This document shows, in pieces, positions 1 to 31,736 of a stretch of DNA of 31,982 bases. The notes beneath the pieces are model-generated. The model made no database searches. It was not told the DNA's origin and saw nothing but the letters and a program-made list of their open reading frames with translations. Made by a program: the position numbers and the translations under genes. The first letter of the stretch is position 1; each line of letters opens with the position of its first letter. Source of the DNA: a virus. Location of the stretch: the IMG/VR virus record IMGVR_UViG_3300021513_000090; one strand, 5' to 3'.

Positions 1-2
1 GT

Positions 3-752
3 GAGTATGCATATTGCCAGGAGGCTTGCGAGCTGGGATGTCAGGGTACATGTGAGCTGTCGAATCAGGGAGCCGGCTGCCAGGAAGCATGTGAGTCGGC
101 GTGCCAGGGCACATGTGAACTGGAGTGTCAGGGTGAGTGCCAGTCAGGGTGCCAGGGGGTATGTGAGGAAGCATGTGAGCTGGCGTGCCAGGGCACATGT
201 GAGGTGGAGTGCCAGGAAGGATGTCAGACAGGATGTGAGACATCGTGCCAGGGCACATGCCAACACGGGTGTGAGGAACTCTGCCAGGAAGGCTGTGAAA
301 CCACGTGTGAGTGGGGATTTTGTCAGTTAAAATGTCAATCTAGCTGCCAGGGCACGTGTGAGATCGCCTGCCAGGGCGAGTGTCAGGAAGCATGTGAGAC
401 GTCATGCCAGAGCACATGCGAAATGGAGTGCCAGGGCGAGGGGTGTCAGACAGGATGTGAGGAAGGATGCGAGGAAGGATGTGAATCAGGTGGATGCCAG
501 GGCACATGTGAGGTGGAGTGCCAGAACGGCTGTATGACCGGATGTGAGGTGTCATGTCAGGGGACATGTGAACTCGCCTGCGAAGAAGCATGTGAAAGTG
601 GACATTGCCAGGGAATATGTGAGTACAGCTGCCAGGGTACATGTGAGGTGGAATGTCAGGGTCCCTGCCAGGCGGTATGTGAAACAAGCTGTCAGGGGAC
701 ATGTGAGATAGAGTGTCAGGGAGAGTCAGAAGGGGGAGGACCGCCGGAATAA
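3..752 (+). CDS. Cys-rich CxxxC repeat protein, 5'-truncated by window edge
   Basis: Frame of track ORF 204..752 is open back to position 3 (EYAYCQEACELGCQGTCEL...). Cys every 4th residue with alternating CE/CQ. Ends GESEGGGPPE*. Confidence 0.85.
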   Translation, partial: EYAYCQEACELGCQGTCELSNQGAGCQEACESACQGTCELECQGECQSGCQGVCEEACELACQGTCEVECQEGCQTGCETSCQGTCQHGCEELCQEGCETTCEWGFCQLKCQSSCQGTCEIACQGECQEACETSCQSTCEMECQGEGCQTGCEEGCEEGCESGGCQGTCEVECQNGCMTGCEVSCQGTCELACEEACESGHCQGICEYSCQGTCEVECQGPCQAVCETSCQGTCEIECQGESEGGGPPE

Positions 753-6177: not shown

Positions 6178-6945
6178 TCAACACCAGTGAACGATCACAT
6201 CAAAAATACCATCAAGATATTCGAGATCGCTAACGAAATGATCGATCGCTTCGTCCTCATCCCACACCTCATATTGTTTTACAGATAGGCTGTCCGGTGA
6301 AGTCGCGCCCGGTGGTCGGTAGACAAACAGGACGACATTTTTAGCATCCACCGCTCCTTTATACGGTTCGATTTGTTGTTTGATTTCCCATCTCATCACG
6401 CTATCGGGACGTAGTGCGTATCCTACGATCACTTTACTCCCACCGACCAGTCCACCAATGAAATTGATTTTTCTATTGCCGATGAAGACGTTCATTATAT
6501 CGGCGCGTGATGGTGTGGGCTGTCCGTATGGATGTGTGTGAAACGATCCGATGTGCACACCTTTTGCTTTCTCGAAACATTCCACATGCTCGATTTGTAT
6601 GCCGCTGCCGGTCTCAGCTTCGGCGCAATCGGTCAGCTCGTACCCCCGCGGTCCGACATCACATACTGTGCAACCATACTCAGTAAACCACTTCTCAGCT
6701 TCTGCGAGATGGATCAACTTCATCCGTTTTTCTTCTATGCTGGAATCGACCGACACAATATGGCTCTCAATGTCGCGGGTGTATCGCCCACAGTGTTGGT
6801 CAACCGCCTGGCACAACTCCTCCTGTAGTTCGGCGAGAACACCGAGCAGCAATTCCCTAGGCGTGATCTTCTCCCCACCAACTTTCGATCTGCTGACCGC
6901 TTTTACAGCGGCTTCGAGTTCGCGTGGCATGTAGTCGAATGTCAT
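6178..6945 (-). CDS. JAB/MPN+ (JAMM) metalloprotease-like protein, paralog 1
   Basis: EYGCTVC plus GSFHTHPYGQPTPSRAD (HxH-x7-S-x2-D). Start placed at ATG 6945 (AGGT RBS; avoids overlap with the upstream gene). Confidence 0.75.
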   Translation of the reverse strand: MTFDYMPRELEAAVKAVSRSKVGGEKITPRELLLGVLAELQEELCQAVDQHCGRYTRDIESHIVSVDSSIEEKRMKLIHLAEAEKWFTEYGCTVCDVGPRGYELTDCAEAETGSGIQIEHVECFEKAKGVHIGSFHTHPYGQPTPSRADIMNVFIGNRKINFIGGLVGGSKVIVGYALRPDSVMRWEIKQQIEPYKGAVDAKNVVLFVYRPPGATSPDSLSVKQYEVWDEDEAIDHFVSDLEYLDGIFDVIVHWC

Positions 6946-6947
6946 TT

Positions 6948-6995
6948 TTAATACCTGTTGACTACCCCTGGATATGGGTCGATTTTTTGTTCCAT
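6948..6995 (-). other. 15-codon mini-ORF MEQKIDPYPGVVNRY, homologous to an internal segment of JAB paralog 2
   Basis: AGGTGA RBS; DNA 6964-7008 aligns to about 12655-12700 with few mismatches. Confidence 0.6.
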
Positions 6996-7003
6996 TTCGT
7001 GTT

Positions 7004-7387
7004 TCACCTGGCTGTGTTGGCTGTGTTACAAAATCTAACGAACCTATCAAGCGCCCATCTCATAAGGTTTTTCTTCGTTAGATCGATATATGTAACACCT
7101 ACGAACGATTCCCACATCTCGTCGATCCGGTTGAAGAGTTGATCCGGTACGTCCACGACGACATCAACAATCTTCTCATCACTAACATCTTCTGTGTTGA
7201 TGGGTACAACAATCGTCGTGTCCAGCTGCTTTATGGTTTGATCATCCAGCTGTGCGAAACGTTCCAGTGCCCATAGAACGAGTTTTCGATTCGATATTGG
7301 AATATTCACACTACCGATCAGATCGTTCCATTTAACACGTATACTGTCTAATACTGGTTTAGGTACACTTACTATTATTTTCGACAT
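7004..7387 (-). CDS. Tandem double ribbon-helix-helix DNA-binding protein
   Basis: Two internal repeats: IIVSVPKPVLDSIRVKW...RKLVLWALERF and VVVDVPDQLFNRIDEMW...KNLMRWALDRF. Confidence 0.6.
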   Translation of the reverse strand: MSKIIVSVPKPVLDSIRVKWNDLIGSVNIPISNRKLVLWALERFAQLDDQTIKQLDTTIVVPINTEDVSDEKIVDVVVDVPDQLFNRIDEMWESFVGVTYIDLTKKNLMRWALDRFVRFCNTANTAR

Positions 7388-7423
7388 ACGAGTTTCGCCT
7401 CATGACCTTCTGACTCTCATCGG

Positions 7424-7438
7424 CATATAAAACTTTCG
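7424..7438 (-). promoter_or_regulatory. Archaeal BRE-TATA promoter for the RHH/JAB1 operon
   Basis: Minus strand reads CGAAAG-TTTTATATG about 37 nt upstream of ATG 7387. Confidence 0.55.
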
Positions 7439-7475
7439 TATATGGTTACCACAGTGGGGCATCTGAGGGGAAAAT

Positions 7476-7936
7476 GTGGTACATCCCATGAGGCTTCATA
7501 CCGATACAAGATTCAGACATAGTGGTACATCCCATGAGGCTTCATACCGATACATCCCATGAGGCTTCATACCGATACAAGATTCAGACATAGTGGTACA
7601 TCCCATGAGGCTTCATACCGATACAAGATTCAGACACAGTGGTACACACGAAATTCAATGTGGCGAACATGAGAGCCGGGGCGATACAAGATTCAGACAC
7701 AGTGGTACACACGAAATTCAATGTGGCTAACACGAGGCGCCATACCGATACAAGATTCAGACATAGTGGTACATCCCATGAGGCGTCATACCGATACAAG
7801 ATTCAGACACAGTGGTACATCCCATGAGGCGTCATACCGATACAAGATTCAGACACAGTGGTACATCCCATGAGGCGCCATACCGATACATCCCATGAGG
7901 CTTCATACCGATACAAGATTCAGACACAGTGGTACA
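7476..7936. repeat. Modular direct-repeat array (iteron- or centromere-like)
   Basis: Eight copies of 28-bp CGATACAAGATTCAGACAYAGTGGTACA at 7502, 7573, 7619, 7682, 7746, 7792, 7838, 7909, separated by 43/18/35/36/18/18/43-bp linkers that are themselves repeated. Confidence 0.95.
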
Positions 7937-7952
7937 AAACCAATGAAGGTGA

Positions 7953-10900
7953 TCAATCGATTGTGTACTTGTCACCCACTTTTTTAATAGGTTTTTCGCG
8001 CAATCGGAACATGTTTATGTTATCGTCGATCACCTGTTCGACAATTTCGGTGGTGAGCCCATCTGGCACGTCCATGCCTTTTAGCTCCAATAAGACGTGC
8101 ATTGGGCTGAATTCTCTAAGCCCCTTACTGTAACCGAGGTAGAAAATACGTGACCTGATGGCATTAACAAGTTTCTGTGATTCTGTATCCGAAAAATCAC
8201 CGACACGAACAACACGCTTTTTTCTAGCTGTTGTGTTTACTTCGTTTTCATCTCTTTTCCTATTAAATTCAACAAATAAGGGAAATGCGTGTTGTTCGTG
8301 TAAAGAAGAAATGTCCTTTTTCTCGGTACCAGACAAGTTGTCTCTTACCTTTATGAATCTCCATCCCCTCATTTTTTTACCATTTTCATCAAAAAGATTC
8401 TCTGTGTAGTCCAATCCAGGTTTTGACATCATCTGCGACGTAAAAACCCTTCTTGTTTGTATTTTAGCCGTAGTGTTTCCATCTTCACAATATTTTAGAT
8501 ACCGTTTATATATTTCATTTCCACCGATCTGATCATCCTCGTCTGTTGTTACGGTGACCATGTCCATAAAAAACGATTCAATTGAATCCGCACCTTTGAT
8601 GTACATTCTCTCCACTTTTTTATAATCATCTGTGGTAAGGATGGTTCTATCTTCTTTGATGCGCTGCACACCATCGAGAGCATGATTCAGTATCCCAGAA
8701 AGTTCTTCTTTCGTGGTTAGCTTTTTAAACATGCCACGATCTTCTTTTTTACCAATGAACGTCTGTTTAAATTCCAAAAGCACTACCCGCCTCCAGAACG
8801 CGAGCGTTTTGTCCCTCGTTTGTGGCAGTTCATTCGCCGCATATATCAGTTTAGCGTGATTTACAAACGTAAACGGCTGTCCGTATTTCTTTTGAGCCTG
8901 TATTATATCTGTTCCTGACGATAGTGACTTCAGGTGACCTGTCTGGTACAATTCCTTGCTCGATAGATCACCAACCACATTAGCCAGCTTTCCATACAAC
9001 TCAGCTGGTAGGAACGGATCATCGAGCCGCTGTAGTTCTACTCCTGATATGTTTTGGTGCCCTAAAAATTCTTTTAAGACATCTAACAACGTGCCCTTTC
9101 CGTTTGCACCTGAGCCGTGAAACATAAACCATTTCTGGATGTGATAATCACGTATCAAACAATAACCGAACAGATCGATGACCCTGATCCGGTCATCCTC
9201 ATCTGGTAGCACTTCTGATAAAAAATTATCAAACACAGGACATTTTGCCCCTGGATCATATCTAATCGATACCTGTGTGGTTGAATAATAATCCGGTGTA
9301 TGTGGCATGAGTTTACGTGTGGCGATATTAAGGAGTCCGTTCCCGATGTTGATGATGTTCTCGTCCGCATCGATCTCGTCACGGTCCACATAAGTCAGTC
9401 GCTGGATGTGTCCAATTACCTCAGCGACAGAGTTCCTTGTGACTTTGACCCCTTCCATGATGTTCTCAAGCATCCTCTTGATGTAAACCTCTCCTCTGGG
9501 CTTGTACACGCCACCATCATAGTAAAAAACCTCTTCCGTGTCGGTTAGGGTGATGAAACGTTCACCAGATTCGTTGATAACCCAGCGTGCGAACGCATTC
9601 GGGTCAAACCCGATCACCTTGCCTGTGGTCTCATTGTAAGTTATAAAACTGTCCCCATCCACGTCCCATTTCTTCTTTTTTAGTGTTTTAACCGCATTGA
9701 TTATTTCACTGACAACGTGATCATCGAGTTGGTAATGCCGTGCCACTGCCGACTGTATGAACGCCATCCGTTCGACCGGTTCCATCGCAGCCAGTTCTTT
9801 GACAACAAATGATCTCGCTGCCCGTGCGCTGTCGGTAACGCTGGTCGGGACCTCCTGCTGTGTGAGTTTCATGTCCCAGACCGACATACCTTCGTCACAC
9901 AATTGTTTAAATTCCTCGAAAGTATGTGTGCGAAGATACTCGGCGATGTCCATCTTCTCATCGCCGTTTTCAACCGGCAGCCTAACGACCTTTGTGTTTA
10001 CTCCGTTAACTGTGAGATACTCGGCGGTCTGTATTGATCCCTTGATGCCAGCAGCGTCGGTGTCGTTGCATACAAACACCTCCTTGAACCGCTTCGCGAT
10101 CTTGAGGAGCCTCATACAGTCCGCTTTTCTGAACTTGGTCGTGACCGGGCTGATGCACGCCATCCCTCCGTTCAGCACGGCTATACAATCGGTAACCCCC
10201 TCCGTGATAACAAGCCGGTCATTCACGCCCCTGGTCGAGTCCATACCATACAGGTAACGGTTCTCAACCTGTGGACTGATGTAATCGTTTTTGGGATCGT
10301 TTGTTTTGAGTTTTTTGTATTTCCCTGACTCGTATTTGTTTTTAGGAGTCCATTTTGACTGCCTTGCGATAAAATACACAACATGACCGTTGTACCAGTA
10401 TGGGAATATGATCCTCCCGATAAACTGGTCCATCCATCCTCGTGACGTGCGTCTCACGAGACCGGATTTTTCAACGAGTGTATGATCGAAGACCTTCACC
10501 ATTTCTCTGTATAACGCATCCCCTGTGGTCTTGGATATGCCGATCTTCAGCTCGTCTATAGTATCATCCGTGATACCCCATTTGTCCCGTATAGCGGCTC
10601 TATGGACGTCCAGCAGGTTACTGTGATAATACTCTGCAGCAGCCGTGTAGAGTGTCCGTATCTCCTGCAGTTCAATCCGTGCCTCTATGTCGCCTCTATC
10701 GATCTCGATACCCGCCTTATGTGCAGCGATCTCCAGCACCTGTTGGAACTGTGTCCTGATATCGAGATCGTTCGCATCAGCGATCCAGTCCAGCACGTCC
10801 CCGCCGGCGCCACAGTTCCAACACTTCCAGACCTGCTTCTTCTTGTTAACATTCAGGCTGCGCCCAGACTTGCTCTCGTGTTTTGGATGCTTTCCTACCC

Positions 10901-11003
10901 ATTCATCACCGATTTGTGTTAGGTCAACAGTCTCCTGCACGACCTCAACAATGTCGAGTTTGTCTTTTATTTCATCAATAGTTGTGTCACGATGATCTAA
11001 CAT
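7953..11003 (-). CDS. DnaG-type primase (Zn finger + TOPRIM) fused to D5/P4-like SF3 helicase
   Basis: HPKH...WKCWNCGAGGD Zn-finger region; ITEGVTD and NDTDAAG TOPRIM motifs; D5_N-like region; Walker A GSGANGKG; GAGGTCGT RBS. Confidence 0.9.
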   Translation of the reverse strand: MLDHRDTTIDEIKDKLDIVEVVQETVDLTQIGDEWVGKHPKHESKSGRSLNVNKKKQVWKCWNCGAGGDVLDWIADANDLDIRTQFQQVLEIAAHKAGIEIDRGDIEARIELQEIRTLYTAAAEYYHSNLLDVHRAAIRDKWGITDDTIDELKIGISKTTGDALYREMVKVFDHTLVEKSGLVRRTSRGWMDQFIGRIIFPYWYNGHVVYFIARQSKWTPKNKYESGKYKKLKTNDPKNDYISPQVENRYLYGMDSTRGVNDRLVITEGVTDCIAVLNGGMACISPVTTKFRKADCMRLLKIAKRFKEVFVCNDTDAAGIKGSIQTAEYLTVNGVNTKVVRLPVENGDEKMDIAEYLRTHTFEEFKQLCDEGMSVWDMKLTQQEVPTSVTDSARAARSFVVKELAAMEPVERMAFIQSAVARHYQLDDHVVSEIINAVKTLKKKKWDVDGDSFITYNETTGKVIGFDPNAFARWVINESGERFITLTDTEEVFYYDGGVYKPRGEVYIKRMLENIMEGVKVTRNSVAEVIGHIQRLTYVDRDEIDADENIINIGNGLLNIATRKLMPHTPDYYSTTQVSIRYDPGAKCPVFDNFLSEVLPDEDDRIRVIDLFGYCLIRDYHIQKWFMFHGSGANGKGTLLDVLKEFLGHQNISGVELQRLDDPFLPAELYGKLANVVGDLSSKELYQTGHLKSLSSGTDIIQAQKKYGQPFTFVNHAKLIYAANELPQTRDKTLAFWRRVVLLEFKQTFIGKKEDRGMFKKLTTKEELSGILNHALDGVQRIKEDRTILTTDDYKKVERMYIKGADSIESFFMDMVTVTTDEDDQIGGNEIYKRYLKYCEDGNTTAKIQTRRVFTSQMMSKPGLDYTENLFDENGKKMRGWRFIKVRDNLSGTEKKDISSLHEQHAFPLFVEFNRKRDENEVNTTARKKRVVRVGDFSDTESQKLVNAIRSRIFYLGYSKGLREFSPMHVLLELKGMDVPDGLTTEIVEQVIDDNINMFRLREKPIKKVGDKYTID

Positions 11004-11225
11004 GCACGACCTCTATCCGTTTATGATGTTCGGAGCGGCGGCTATATGTGTTTCCTTTCGTGTTCCTTCACCACCGATGTTCATGGTTTCGCGATCCTTC
11101 GTCACCATCACCACCGTCCGCAGTGGTGAAGGACCGGCGGCGATCCACCGCCGGCGAGATCAAAAGAGATCGCGTTAACATCTCTAAAACGAATGTACTT
11201 AAATGTTGTGCGCATTATCACCACT

Positions 11226-11888
11226 ATGGTTGTGATCATCCTTCCAACGAAAAACGAGGCAGCATCGATCCACACTGTCATTACAGACATCAGGAACGTT
11301 TTCAACAGACGGATAATCGTGGTTGATGGTCATTCAGTAGATGGTACTCGCAAGATAGCACGTAAGTTGGGAGCCGATGTGATACTCGATCATGGTAAAG
11401 GCAAGGGTGACGCGCTCCGGACTGCGTTTGATTATGTTTTCGAGTATTCCAATGAAAGCGTTGTTTTCGTTGACGCTGATGGGAGCTACCCGGTTGATCG
11501 GATACCGGATTTGGTCAACGCGCTCAAAGATTGTGATATGGTGATCGGTGATCGGGTTGAATTCGCACCGGGATCATTATCATTTCTCTTCAGATTAGGT
11601 GACTGGGTATCCAGAGCATTGTTCAGACTCCTCTACGGGCGAAAGCTCGATAACCTGTCCGGTTTCCGTGGTATGACCCGCAGCGCAATAGAGAAGATGA
11701 ATCTCACAGAAGATGGTTTTGGCATCGAAACAGAAATCACAGCAAAGGCTGCGCGATTGGGTCTGCGGATAAAAAGTGTCCCGATAGAGTATTGGAAGCG
11801 CGATGGTAGATCGAAGTTCCGACCGGTCAGGGATGGTCTCACGGTCTTGCGGGCGATGATCCGGTACCGCTGGTGGAAGCCCGATTAA
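11226..11888 (+). CDS. GT2 glycosyltransferase (polyprenyl-phosphate glycosyltransferase, DPM1-like)
   Basis: VIILPTKNEA, VVDGHSVDGT, GKGDAL, FVDADGSY, DNLSGFR, FGIETEI; ATG 11226 gives the canonical N-terminus. Confidence 0.9.
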   Translation: MVVIILPTKNEAASIHTVITDIRNVFNRRIIVVDGHSVDGTRKIARKLGADVILDHGKGKGDALRTAFDYVFEYSNESVVFVDADGSYPVDRIPDLVNALKDCDMVIGDRVEFAPGSLSFLFRLGDWVSRALFRLLYGRKLDNLSGFRGMTRSAIEKMNLTEDGFGIETEITAKAARLGLRIKSVPIEYWKRDGRSKFRPVRDGLTVLRAMIRYRWWKPD

Positions 11889-12468
11889 TTTTTTCCTCGA
11901 TCTCTTTTTTGATGGTGGAATATGCGTTCGTTTCTGTGAACTTGATGTGTGATATGTACATCCCGTCACCATTCAGGTTCGTTGGCACCCAGATGAAATC
12001 TGATGAGCGTTTGGTGTATGCTCGTGTTGCTGCAACCATCGACATCTCAAACCCGTTTATTGTTCGTCCGCGCAATTGGTATAGGTCGAAACTCAATAAG
12101 ACACGAGTGACTTTCTTCGATTTGTTGTATATTTTACGGGCGACGAATTCGTTTACAATATCTGGTATCGCCGATTTTTTTACATTGTACAACAAGCCGA
12201 GAAACCTCACGTCGCTGAATGGTCTGTCCACGATCCTGCTGTTCCATTTAATCAACAGGTTCATAACATCGTCTGCTGAAAGGTCACACGTACCGAGTTT
12301 TATCTGCTCTGGTCCGTACCACAAGGTTGCTTTACCGGAATCGAAATCGGTTTCGATGGTGTAGAAGAGAACCTTTAGTTTTGGGTAGTGCCCTCTCAAC
12401 TTGATATTCTGCTGGCTCAACCGTTCTTCAATATTCTTCCCGAATGTTGTTTTGTCTTCAGATGACAT
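11839..12468 (-). CDS. Hypothetical protein, last gene of the JAB3-JAB2 operon
   Basis: 209-aa ORF starting 3 nt after the JAB2 stop; no recognised motif. Confidence 0.6.
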   Translation of the reverse strand: MSSEDKTTFGKNIEERLSQQNIKLRGHYPKLKVLFYTIETDFDSGKATLWYGPEQIKLGTCDLSADDVMNLLIKWNSRIVDRPFSDVRFLGLLYNVKKSAIPDIVNEFVARKIYNKSKKVTRVLLSFDLYQLRGRTINGFEMSMVAATRAYTKRSSDFIWVPTNLNGDGMYISHIKFTETNAYSTIKKEIEEKINRASTSGTGSSPARP

Positions 12469-12471
12469 ATT

Positions 12472-13200
12472 TTAACACCACTGCACCACAATGCTGAAAG
12501 AACGCTTTAAATATTCTATCTGCTTATAGAATTGTCGGCGCTGTGTAGCGTCATCATATACAGGAATTACCCCCACATGTGCCGACACATTGGCTCCTTG
12601 TGAATCGGATGGTACCTTCCACATGCAAACAGCGCCTTTTGCTCCCTCCCAAATATCCCCCGGATATGGATCGATCTTTTGTTCCATTTTGTACTTCACC
12701 AAACTGCTATCGAATGATCCGTAACCAACTATCACGTCTCTATCCCCGACTTTACCACCTATGAAATCAACTATGCTCTCACCACGAAGTTGATTATTGA
12801 TATCGGCTGCAGATGGGAGGGGCAGCATGAACGGATGTGTGTGGTATGATCCGATTGGATTGCCGCCTGCCTCAATACATGTGGTCTTTGAGATGGTGAC
12901 ATGTGTACCTGAAGACTCCTGTCTGCGACAGTCTGTTAGTTTCGCACCGTTCTCACCCAGATAGCAGACTGTGCAACCGTACTCGGAAAACCATTTATTC
13001 ACTTCTTCAAAAGGCATTATTTTTTGGTATGTTCCCTCTCGTTTTTTCACAATATCGATTACTGACTTGAGATCGACTACCCAATCCCGAATTTCCTCGT
13101 ACGCTGGAACATTGTCAGCGATCATCTGACACATCGGGTCTTCAAGTTCGTCCAGAATGCCGAGAAGAAGATTTTTCGGAGAAATCTCTTCCTCCGTCAT
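12472..13200 (-). CDS. JAB/MPN+ (JAMM) metalloprotease-like protein, paralog 2
   Basis: EYGCTVC; GSYHTHPFMLPLPSAAD; ATG 13200 overlaps the paralog 3 stop (TGATG). Confidence 0.75.
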   Translation of the reverse strand: MTEEEISPKNLLLGILDELEDPMCQMIADNVPAYEEIRDWVVDLKSVIDIVKKREGTYQKIMPFEEVNKWFSEYGCTVCYLGENGAKLTDCRRQESSGTHVTISKTTCIEAGGNPIGSYHTHPFMLPLPSAADINNQLRGESIVDFIGGKVGDRDVIVGYGSFDSSLVKYKMEQKIDPYPGDIWEGAKGAVCMWKVPSDSQGANVSAHVGVIPVYDDATQRRQFYKQIEYLKRSFSIVVQWC

Positions 13201-14030
13201 CAGCACCACCGAATTATAACATCAAAAACATTCGATAGAGCAGTTACCTGTTCAGCGAACCCCACACGCTGCACATCTTCAGAATACACCGAAAGTTCAT
13301 CCACCTCGCCTTCGCTCTCGTAATTATCCCAAAACACGTCAGGTATCTCTCCTGACTCCAGCTCCTCCCTGAATTCTGCGCGTTCGTCTTCGTCATACAT
13401 ATCAGAAGAGAAAATGTAGTCGAAGTCTTCCAGTAGGTCTGATGCCATCGGACCCGGATTCTCCCGGTAGAATCTGATGACACCGATGGGCTCTCCTGGC
13501 ATATCTCCCCACACTGTCCCACCAGGTCTAAAAATAGACATTGCTGCAAGGTGTCCGTATCGCATCTCGCTCGTCGGTCGCGGTGTGTAACCAACAATCA
13601 CATCCCTGCCACCGACCTTACCCCCGATAAAATCATAAGATGTCTTCCAGTTGAAGCCGCATAAGAGATCATCGTGACTCGGTATCGGCAGTCCAGTTGG
13701 ATGTGTGTGGAAAGTCCCAACGCGTCTCCCCCCCTGGTGCACACAATCAATGATATCGATGGTACATCCAGCAGCGGTGTGTCCAGTATCGCAATCGGTT
13801 AGTCGATATGCCTCACCGATCTTACATATCGTGCACCCGTGCTCTGCGAGATATTTCTCTGCCTCAAACATATCCATCATTCGATAAGACTGTGCTTCAT
13901 CATCCATGTCTGGAGTAATAATCCAATCTTCGATCTCTTTATTCGGTACACAATGCCGCTCGATTCGATCACACATAGCATCCTTCATGGTGTTGAGGAT
14001 GTGTTCGAGTATCTCCAGCCGTGAAACCAT
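13200..14030 (-). CDS. JAB/MPN+ (JAMM) metalloprotease-like protein, paralog 3, with acidic insertion
   Basis: EHGCTIC; GTFHTHPTGLPIPSHDD; start ATG 14030 (GTG 14048 also possible). Confidence 0.75.
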   Translation of the reverse strand: MVSRLEILEHILNTMKDAMCDRIERHCVPNKEIEDWIITPDMDDEAQSYRMMDMFEAEKYLAEHGCTICKIGEAYRLTDCDTGHTAAGCTIDIIDCVHQGGRRVGTFHTHPTGLPIPSHDDLLCGFNWKTSYDFIGGKVGGRDVIVGYTPRPTSEMRYGHLAAMSIFRPGGTVWGDMPGEPIGVIRFYRENPGPMASDLLEDFDYIFSSDMYDEDERAEFREELESGEIPDVFWDNYESEGEVDELSVYSEDVQRVGFAEQVTALSNVFDVIIRWC

Positions 14031-14163: not shown

Positions 14164-14355
14164 ATGACGGTCAGTCTCAGCGCCCATATCAGTCAATCCT
14201 CGCGGGATAAGTTGAGATTGTACCAGGAAGTACATGGTTTCCGCAATGTGTCAGATGCTCTTGAAAACATACTGACAGAGATGCCGGTGCCAAATAGAAG
14301 GAATAGGGCTATGAATGACCCTAACCAGACAAAACTTCCTGGGGGTATAGAATGA
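14164..14355 (+). CDS. Small ribbon-helix-helix-like DNA-binding protein
   Basis: GGAGG RBS; VSLSAHIS strand followed by two helices (SRDKLRLYQE, NVSDALENIL). Confidence 0.5.
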   Translation: MTVSLSAHISQSSRDKLRLYQEVHGFRNVSDALENILTEMPVPNRRNRAMNDPNQTKLPGGIE

Positions 14356-15089
14356 AATTAGAAGCTGTGATCGAAGCACGCACCCTAAACGCGGTGTTGA
14401 AAGCCGTGCAGAGTGTCAGTCGTGAATGTGCCCTCGGCGTATGGTCTGATGGATTACATACTAGGGCGGTTGACCCCTCTATCGCTACGATGGTTGATGT
14501 GGAGATACCGGCAAGCGCGTTTCTGGAATATAGCGCAGATGAAGGTACGATCGGTATCAACGTCGACGCTCTTGCCGGGAAAACAAACACCTTCTCTGCC
14601 GGGGATGAGGTGAGCATCGTTTGGGATGATATCAACAAGAAAATAAACATCTCGTGTGACGGTGCCAAATGGGGTGTACGTGCAATCGATGCTAACACCG
14701 TGCGAAAACCTCCTGAAATGCCGAACTTGGATTTGCCGCTCAACGTTGAAATTGACGCAGAAAGGTTTAAACGTATGTTGAAGAGGGCAGGGATGGTCAG
14801 TGAGTACATAACCATCGGGTTCGACGCGGATAAACTCTCTGAAGATACCTTCTATATATCAGCAATAGGAGAGATAGACGACTTCCGGGAAGATGTATCA
14901 GGCGCAGATATCACAATCAATGCAGCTGCCCCTCTTGAGACATTGTACACATACGAGATGATGTCATCTCTCGCAAAGAACTTCAGCGGTCTGGTACGTA
15001 TCCGTCTCGGCAGGGATCTCCCTATTGTATTCGACCTCAACATCGGTGTGCCGGTTACATTCCTCCTGGCACCACGGCTTGAGAGGTAA
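14352..15089 (+). CDS. pcn: PCNA, DNA polymerase sliding clamp
   Basis: 245 aa; RAVDPSIATMVDVEIPASAFLEY, IGINVDAL, LGRDLPI and FLLAPR, typical of archaeal PCNA. Confidence 0.92.
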   Translation: MKLEAVIEARTLNAVLKAVQSVSRECALGVWSDGLHTRAVDPSIATMVDVEIPASAFLEYSADEGTIGINVDALAGKTNTFSAGDEVSIVWDDINKKINISCDGAKWGVRAIDANTVRKPPEMPNLDLPLNVEIDAERFKRMLKRAGMVSEYITIGFDADKLSEDTFYISAIGEIDDFREDVSGADITINAAAPLETLYTYEMMSSLAKNFSGLVRIRLGRDLPIVFDLNIGVPVTFLLAPRLER

Positions 15090-19334: not shown

Positions 19335-19409
19335 AGCGGGGTAGGGCAGCCAGGTTTCCCCGTCGGGCTCATAACTCGAAGATCGATGGTTCAAATCCAT
19401 CCCCCGCTA
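19335..19409 (+). tRNA. tRNA-Met(CAT), initiator type
   Basis: Acceptor AGCGGGG/CCCCGCT with A1-U72; anticodon arm TCGGG-CTCATAA-CTCGA; T arm GATGG-TTCAAAT-CCATC; no encoded CCA. Confidence 0.92.
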
Positions 19410-30040: not shown

Positions 30041-30280
30041 CGTCTATCGGGGTGACTTCAGCACGATTTCCACGATGTGTCCATTAGAGCCCCCACATCG
30101 CACAAACTCGATTGCCTGTGTTGGCACATCAATTGCATCGAGAACTATCGCCTGTCCCCACAAAAACAGTTGACCCCTGGAGGGGCGATGCCGGAGATAT
30201 ACACTGTTGTGCCAACCGTCTCTCGGCATCGTACGTGTGTCCAAAGTGCAGATATCATCTGCACCACATTCTACATAAAC

Positions 30281-31486
30281 CTATTCTCTCTCTCGTGCGG
30301 CTGCCTTAAGTTCTGCGAGTTCCTGCCGCAATGTCCTCAATTCTTCCATCACGTCAGCCCCCACCGGTTGTTCGAGTATCTGCACGTCTCTCTCGATCTC
30401 ACCGTATCTTTTCGTGTATTCTTTCGGTAGGTATATCCGGTATTCCTTCGCGATCTTATAGGCTTCTTCAGGTCGCATCACCTCAACGTAATGCATCAGC
30501 GGCATCGATGCCGACTCCCAGCCCCCGAACTTAACGAGTGTCGGCAGCCCGACATCTCCCACCATCGCGTACACAACGCTAGCCCATGTGTGCCGGATCG
30601 ACCACGAGAACTTCGGTAACCCTGCCCTGTTCTTGATAGCCCTCCCCTCGTCGCGGACAGCAGCGATGCTTGCAGGGATGATCCTGTCCCTGGGTCCCAG
30701 CCCCATCCGCTCACACCACTCCTTGATGTCGTTGTAGAGATTCATGTCGATGTATATTTCCGACGGAGGCATCTTCTTCTTGAGCTCTTCCTCGACTTCC
30801 GACTTGTGCTCTTCGACCGCCTCGATCGCGGGGATGACGCAGTACCTGTACCCGAACAGTGGGGAAACCTCCTCACGCCGGCACTCGATATCGCCACATC
30901 TGAATTCGAGAGCGTGTGAATACCGGAGCCCGGTCTGCAAGAGGAATCTCGCGAGGATGTTGTACTGTGTCTTCACATCATACGCGGTCATTCCCTTCGG
31001 GGCTCGGCTGATGCGGGAAATCGCATCAAAGATTCGGTGCAGCTCATCGAGGTTGTAGATCGGCGGGCGGCTCTTCACCCGGCTCTTCTTCATTTTGATG
31101 CCCTTGAACGGGTTGTATACCGTGTACCTCTCCTCCAGAAGCCACCGCCCAAATGCAGATAGTGTCGCGTTGATCTGTGTCTGGACTGATTTGCTGTCTG
31201 AAAGACTTCGGGAAAACCGTTCTCCATCCCCTCTGCGGATGCTATCCAGATCACGGAGATCTAGGACGTCCAACCCCTTCTGCTTGGCATACCACCTGAA
31301 AAACCGCGGCAGATACTTGTATATCCAATCCCTGAGACGCTTTGCGCTATACTCGTTGTACGCATAGTCGGAAAGGTACTCATCGACCACGATGCTCTCC
31401 AATTCCGGTGTAAGCGGCAGGGGATTATCATCAAGCCGTTTCATTAATTTATCGAGTGCAACCTCTTTCGGTATTCTATCAGCCAT
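30281..31486 (-). CDS. Tyrosine recombinase / integrase (XerC/D-like fold)
   Basis: SAM-like N-terminal region ending NPF; LLQTGLRYSHAL (Arg I); SIRH (Arg II); GGW; catalytic Tyr in MHYV; start ATG 31486. Confidence 0.88.
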   Translation of the reverse strand: MADRIPKEVALDKLMKRLDDNPLPLTPELESIVVDEYLSDYAYNEYSAKRLRDWIYKYLPRFFRWYAKQKGLDVLDLRDLDSIRRGDGERFSRSLSDSKSVQTQINATLSAFGRWLLEERYTVYNPFKGIKMKKSRVKSRPPIYNLDELHRIFDAISRISRAPKGMTAYDVKTQYNILARFLLQTGLRYSHALEFRCGDIECRREEVSPLFGYRYCVIPAIEAVEEHKSEVEEELKKKMPPSEIYIDMNLYNDIKEWCERMGLGPRDRIIPASIAAVRDEGRAIKNRAGLPKFSWSIRHTWASVVYAMVGDVGLPTLVKFGGWESASMPLMHYVEVMRPEEAYKIAKEYRIYLPKEYTKRYGEIERDVQILEQPVGADVMEELRTLRQELAELKAAARERE

Positions 31487-31736
31487 TCCTAGCCTCCAAT
31501 TCAACAATGCGCTTCGTCACGATGTCGCTGATCTCGTCGATCTGCTCTGGCGTGAGCACACGAGAATTATGTATCTCTGCATCCGTGTCGACCAGGTCTT
31601 CGACAGATTCGAGAGCATTCACATAGTCCCGGACGGCATCGTAGTCCCAAAATGTGATGTCCTCTGGATACGACACAGACATATCATCGATCTTCTGCTC
31701 GATCTCTGCACGCATCGACGCGACGGTGATGCTCAT
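31479..31736 (-). CDS. Small acidic hypothetical protein
   Basis: 85 aa, overlaps the integrase start. Confidence 0.6.
   Translation of the reverse strand: MSITVASMRAEIEQKIDDMSVSYPEDITFWDYDAVRDYVNALESVEDLVDTDAEIHNSRVLTPEQIDEISDIVTKRIVELEARNG

Follow-up and report, generated by a model that had tools for sequence, protein, structure and literature searches.

The stretch of DNA analysed here (IMG/VR record IMGVR_UViG_3300021513_000090; 31,982 nucleotides, hereafter the window) belongs to an element that is probably a temperate virus of marine ANME-2 (anaerobic methanotrophic) archaea, and it encodes three related proteins of the JAMM/MPN+ metalloprotease type, all on the minus strand. J1 (coordinates 6178–6945) is a type-1 protein of 255 residues with the predicted active-site residues E89, H136, H138, S146 and D149, whereas J2 (12472–13200; 242 residues; E73, H120, H122, S130, D133) and J3 (13200–14030; 276 residues; E63, H108, H110, S118, D121) are type-2 and type-3 paralogues. 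The J2 ATG overlaps the J3 stop codon by one base, and J1 lies ~5.5 kb downstream of this pair, with a primase-helicase gene, a repeat array and a gene coding for 127 residues in between. The three proteins are 32–40% identical to each other (BLAST E-values of 1e-29 to 1e-48), and J1, J2 and J3 account for all three occurrences of the H-x-H-x7-S-x2-D motif in six-frame translations of the window. A longer form of J1 using a TTG start (at 7050; 290 residues) was rejected, as it overlaps the upstream 127-residue gene and homologues begin at the 6945 ATG.

The original prediction for this region described three Cys-rich paralogous JAMM open reading frames (ORFs), and that description holds. The motifs E[YH]GCT[VI]C, HTHP-x6-S-x2-D, LTDC, [LM]C[QD], FIGGxVGxxxVIVGY and F-x-[VI]-[IV]-x-x-W-C-stop are all matched by regular expression in each of the three, and the six proposed conserved Cys residues are invariant among them. 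As was also proposed, the proteins stand alone, being single-domain proteins of an archaeal mobile element with no NlpC fusion.

Structural models of J1 and J3 were made with AlphaFold2 (predicted local distance difference test scores of 92.6 and 93.8, respectively) and compared with known structures using VIA-align. The top match to J1 is Pyrococcus JAMM1 (PfJAMM1; Z 9.4, root-mean-square deviation 2.8, 118 residues aligned), followed by BRCC36, Sst2/AMSH, Rpn11 and Cap3 (Z 7.9), with RadC at Z 6.3 and cytidine deaminase at Z 4.1; for J3, Sst2 (Z 9.1), PfJAMM1 (8.8) and Cap3 (8.6) are tied, and RadC follows at 7.1. Deaminases reach at most Z 4.4 against either model, and the top rows of both searches are MPN domains throughout. 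A best structural match to RadC or a deaminase had been named as refuting the prediction; it is isopeptidases of ubiquitin-like (Ubl) proteins that rank best with both models. The Glu, both His and the Asp are invariant in 55 homologues and the Ser is kept in at least 90%, the same residue set that forms the active site of CsRpn11 (PMC6043591). As modelled for J1 and J3, then, these are JAMM/MPN+ proteins with an MPN fold and an intact canonical site, in which the Glu begins the core strand following the first helix. The family also has a Gly/Ser/Ala/Thr-rich segment at the position of Ins-1, the element with which the Ubl tail pairs in known JAMMs. Its own additions are a stretch of short helices ahead of the Glu strand (~35 residues) and a long extension at the C-terminus, with a further acidic helical insertion of ~45 residues in J3. 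PfJAMM1 (PDB 5LD9/5LDA) and HvJAMM1 share the catalytic residues, but J1–J3 are about twice as long, only 14–16% identical to them, below the NCBIfam desampylase cut-off and carried on mobile DNA. Over ~140 residues, the J1 and J3 models also align (Z 4.6 and 5.7, respectively) with ORF273 (PDB 4ART) of Acidianus two-tailed virus, which is possibly a degenerate viral MPN-like fold.

In curated families all three proteins fall below cut-off. The RadC family PF04002 gives 14.2 bits with J1 against a cut-off of 22.1 (E 0.042) and no match to J2 or J3, PHROG 5556 (tail) gives weak matches (E 4e-4 to 8e-3) that cover the HxH motif only, and weak PADLOC JAB matches have E-values of about 1e-4. Neighbours in BFVD and Atlas include MuF-type proteins, and those in Atlas also DUF4329 proteins. 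J1–J3 could be hydrolases of the RadC or Tox-JAB kind that have nucleic acids or nucleotides as substrates and serve replication, recombination or anti-restriction, although this strikes us as distinctly unlikely. For RadC-type JABs, and for some of archaea, a nucleic-acid role has been argued (PMC3239186), and a RadC-type JAB (PDB 2QLC) shares motif spacing and a replication-gene neighbourhood with J1–J3, whose position beside PCNA and primase-helicase genes is conserved; the locally RadC-like motif of J1 and the DUF4329 neighbours point the same way. However, RadC ranks below the Ubl isopeptidases with both models, the 14 bits of J1 compare with a required 22, an HhH domain is lacking, the predicted isoelectric points of 4.4–5.0 would be unusual among DNA-binding enzymes, and distant homologues are found without any replication context.

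Co-variation of the Cys residues was followed in 28 sequences sharing less than 60% identity (J3 numbering; p-values ignore shared ancestry). Cys20 and the terminal Cys are gained or lost together (18/0/0/10 for both, either alone, or neither), Cys124 is present only where Cys89 exists (10/5/0/13), and Cys69 and Cys96 are invariant, whereas the Cys66–Cys80 pair is weakly supported after redundancy removal (p 0.06). Two type-1 proteins on separate branches (P0007 and P0029) have each lost both the first and the last Cys. The pairs predicted for J1 are 45–255, 95–123 and, more weakly, 92–107, with 89–124 as an additional pair in J3. The residues thus appear to form three or four pairs, two strong, one invariant and one weak, and this pairing, with the terminal Cys tracking an N-terminal one, is new here. 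It fits disulfide staples, and the pairwise disappearance of the Cys residues speaks against a single zinc site of four Cys. The shared C-terminal WC that had been singled out is present in J1–J3, but its Trp is not fixed among homologues, of which three end in YC and two in WI and WF, so that the terminal Cys rather than the Trp seems to be the feature of weight; judging from the co-variation, the WC is best read as half of a staple linking the first helix with the last strand.

We identified 32 close and ~20 distant full-length homologues, all on metagenomic contigs or contigs of metagenome-assembled genomes (MAGs). None was found at E 1e-8 in 392 genomes of the host class, and a GenBank phage set gave nothing beyond one motif-level match, such that the suggested search for a WC-terminal subfamily succeeded among metagenomic and MAG contigs and not among the host-class genomes. 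In the tree, types 1 and 2 form well-supported sister clades (100/99), with type-3 sequences in two groups outside them, and the type-3 architecture is nearest to that of single-copy homologues on more distant elements, which lie among virus-like genes. The relative L003 has types 3-2-1 in tandem with PCNA on one side and GT2/primase genes on the other, while L001 and L055 have two of the three types, in the order 3-1; in close relatives the JAMM genes are all located between PCNA and primase, on the strand opposite the structural-type module.

Immediately upstream of J1, and out of frame with it, is a 44 bp remnant of a J2-like gene (6965–7008, minus strand), which is 86% identical to coordinates 12657–12700 (E 7.6e-8; score 58, compared with at most 28 in 300 shuffles) and is also found in the relative L054. 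We read it as a scar left by J1 departing from an ancestral J3-J2-J1 tandem. From this scar and the type orders of the relatives it would follow that the trio is ancestral to this element group, that type 2 is dispensable, and that J1 was relocated in the lineage of the window. Ratios of nonsynonymous to synonymous substitution (dN/dS) between JAMM genes are 0.07–0.39, compared with 0.20 for PCNA and 0.05–0.10 for MCM, all rough values with synonymous sites near saturation. The predicted expanded and diversified family is thus borne out in having three paralogous types but not in being rapidly diversifying, since the types appear to be old, orthologous and under purifying selection rather than a recent or fast arms-race expansion.

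No fused JAMM form was seen among candidates of 623–2000 residues, which is weak evidence; an 878-residue protein on a virus-like contig (L053:3053–5686) has a distant JAMM-like region (E 5e-14) and appears to be a fused form of the wider family. Two elements with single-copy distant homologues carry other tandem paralogues, four of 200–270 residues at L044:793–3813, which are possible capsid proteins, and five of 106–165 residues at L046:2175–4213. In L001 the JAMM pair is directly followed by a CRISPR-like array with at least 29 repeats of ~36 nt and a 426-residue TnpB/Cas12f-like gene beside it (L001:11300–15733); the array's spacers do not match the window. The close relative L054 has a 220-residue ORF (L054:5879–6541) without a Pfam match, whose His-Gly and Ala-Cys motifs are reminiscent of caspase/gingipain-like peptidases.

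Around the JAMM genes of the window, PCNA (14352–15089, plus strand) is divergent from J3, an arrangement kept in L001 and L003, and a DnaG-type primase fused to a D5-like helicase (7953–11003, minus strand) lies between J1 and the J3-J2 pair. A 209-residue ORF with no family match (11839–12468, minus strand) directly follows J2, occupying the position that J1 has in relatives, and is probably co-transcribed. The repeat array (7476–7963), flanked by the primase on one side and the 127-residue gene on the other, is likely an origin or operator region; a scan for promoters and terminators performed at chance level. At the left end of the window (1–752) is an ORF with Cys at every fourth residue, which extends past the window end to at least 838 residues (L040:16299–18815) and is followed in L040 by a second Cys-repeat/Kelch gene.

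This context bears on the possibility that the proteins are virion-associated or element-directed peptidases, either processing proteins of the element itself or being packaged in disulfide-stabilised form to act outside the cell or on entry. Some tail and minor-capsid proteins of viruses do contain JAB domains, a convergent module that includes tail-fibre-like genes directly adjoins J1, and the paired Cys residues, the PHROG 5556 and MuF-type similarities and the virus-like surroundings of the single-copy homologues are all compatible with such a role. We nonetheless consider it unlikely, given the replication-region location on the strand opposite structural-type genes in close relatives, the restriction of the PHROG matches to the HxH motif, and the absence by hydropathy of any signal peptide or membrane segment in J1–J3. 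Tail JABs of the lambda gpK or PHROG 5556 kind are likewise virus-encoded with an intact motif, but J1–J3 differ in being single-domain proteins with no NlpC/P60 fusion, outside a tail operon and alike in the motif only.

The element encodes, besides the primase-helicase and PCNA, short forms of MCM and RFC, a DNA methylase fused to Mrr, a tRNA-Met and a tyrosine integrase (30281–31507, minus strand) that is 100% identical to a contig of the ANME-2 cluster archaeon MAG WYZ-LMO14. About 9.4 kb of the window recurs at 98–99% identity on two contigs binned in this MAG, which is a hint to the host and not proof, and takes the host assignment no further than family level; the tRNA is 86–94% identical to tRNAs across the host family, and another family member has a related MCM-RFC pair. 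CRISPR spacers of the host family gave no convincing match to the element, whose DNA occurs in hydrothermal-vent and marine-sediment metagenomes from at least four studies. The element is virus-like, and that it is a virus we infer, since neither the window nor close relatives showed a gene for a capsid, portal or terminase protein; tail-fibre-like genes are present in one relative. A suspected capsid gene in L004 was set aside with an Atlas score under 0.9, and scans of viral contigs for the primase, MCM, type-3 JAMM and an L054 gene found nothing. The tRNA gene, tRNA-Met(CAT) in the window (19335–19409), occupies an equivalent place in L001 (5663–5737). The integrase 3′ end with downstream DNA (30156–30301) recurs at 90% identity in the same MAG (L030:358–503), after an NrdD-like zinc-ribbon ORF, and is perhaps part of a second related element. 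Just past the right end of the window, upstream of the integrase, is a TnpB/Cas12f-like ORF (L039:659–2089) resembling by eye that of L001.

Consistent with the earlier statement that no Ubl or E1 gene is nearby, neither was found in the element: neither the window nor related loci contain a match to the host-family SAMP profile, and GG endings are absent from all window ORFs of at least 50 residues. Within the host family (27 genomes), a 91-residue ThiS/MoaD-type protein ending in GG is present in 23 and E1 in 24, mostly together in one molybdopterin locus; one SAMP/MoaD of the family is encoded at L032:1068–1340 (minus strand). A CD-NTase above cut-off occurs in a single genome of the 27, and the strong ThiF matches examined adjoin moaD; weaker additional ThiF matches in G011 and G020 were discarded, one being dehydrogenase-like and the other an unrelated ORF. 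A search for Prok-E2_B gave no match, and neither did its control. The survey that had been suggested for SAMP/Ubl, Bil and CBASS systems (the last being anti-phage signalling by means of cyclic oligonucleotides) finds the first in most of the host family and gives little support for the others: CBASS looks rare in the host family, and evidence for either Bil or CBASS is scant. This makes a dedicated counter-defence against Bil-type or type II CBASS Ubl conjugation very unlikely, even with Cap3 (Z 7.9 and 8.6) among the structural matches that tie for best and with the PADLOC JAB similarity; selection, moreover, is purifying and not diversifying. CBASS Cap3 and Bil-type deubiquitinases (PDB 9ILD, 8TYY; Z 5.9–8.6) do share the JAB fold and active site, but the J1–J3 locus has no CD-NTase, E1/E2 or Ubl gene, its neighbours being PCNA, GT2, primase and ORFs with no family match, and it is carried by a parasite rather than within a defence operon.

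The reading we favour, at about even confidence, is that J1–J3 are element-borne, Zn-dependent desampylase-like isopeptidases that remove host SAMP/MoaD from proteins. Whereas the computations support the fold, the site and the retention of distinct types, the substrate, location and benefit that we infer would be as follows. The proteins would be made in the host cytoplasm together with the adjoining replication genes, binding Zn by His-His-Asp and using a Glu-activated water to cut after the Gly-Gly tail of host SAMP/MoaD. Cleavage would release proteins of the element from being tagged and turned over by the proteasome, or else divert the pool of SAMP. With three or four Cys pairs holding them, the large insertions may give each type its own substrate surface, with the three types having sub-functionalised.

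Several observations weigh against desampylation. Neither SAMP/MoaD nor E1 was found in the two MAGs (78% and 83% complete) of the nearest genus, which holds the element's DNA, and both have moaE without an adjacent moaD and with an atypical C-terminus (L102:1465–1851 in G001, L100:1465–1839 in G002); molybdopterin enzymes are present, and the absence may reflect an assembly gap or real loss. Z scores of 8–9 establish the fold only, with RadC within 2–3 Z units, and the desampylase (NF041370) and Cap3 models score at most 17 bits against cut-offs of 130 and 200, the former model being haloarchaea-specific and also failing the host's own JAMM (18.5 bits). The cytoplasm of an anaerobe is not where disulfides would be expected, and one broad-specificity desampylase would suffice, such that three retained types need further explanation. 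Alternatively, the family could be virus-specific with a non-Ubl substrate, consisting of disulfide-stapled proteases that cut specific host or virion proteins, in which case the element would persist in a lineage of ANME-2 from which SAMP and E1 were lost; we rate this a slim prospect, and the action of JAB peptidases characterised so far is described as confined to Ubl tails (PMC3239186).

That desampylase-like proteins counter Ubl-based defence is not a new hypothesis, having been published for Borgs. There, 315 JAMM-fold proteins in 17 Borgs (about 18 per Borg), which have three or four Cys pairs and a dN/dS of 0.235 and frequently occur in clusters, were proposed as deSAMPylases acting against SAMP-based defence, a function that is predicted only (PMC12660748). 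The Borg Group 1 proteins resemble J1–J3 as multicopy, stand-alone, often adjacent JAMM-fold proteins with three to four Cys pairs and low dN/dS on an extrachromosomal element of anaerobic methanotrophs. In contrast to the ~18 on each megabase-scale Borg of Methanoperedens, however, there are three fixed orthologous types here, on an element of marine ANME-2 that is small and carries an integrase, and J1–J3 are unlike the published description in their 240–280 residues, large helical insertions and Cys pair joining the first helix to the last residue. New are this larger architecture with its staple, the set of three fixed types and the presence on such an element. The J1–J3 family profile also matches five small Cys-rich JAMM-like paralogues within 8 kb (L051:6689–14956; best E 1e-17) of a 39-kb, 32%-GC contig; three lack the standard motif by regular expression, and the invariant Cys pair is present in both of those that have it. 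A wider family common to these genes and J1–J3 is thereby suggested, with L051 as a Borg-like candidate only.

With three compact, confidently folded types and a 91-residue candidate substrate, in vitro testing is simpler than with 315 Borg proteins. If the substrate is not a Ubl, these would be JAB peptidases acting outside Ubl tails, and the deSAMPylase reading of the Borg proteins would be called into question. If J1–J3 are desampylases, on the other hand, counter-sampylation would be no peculiarity of Borgs but a strategy also used by ordinary-sized mobile elements of marine methanotrophs, implying that SAMP tagging acts against archaeal viruses.

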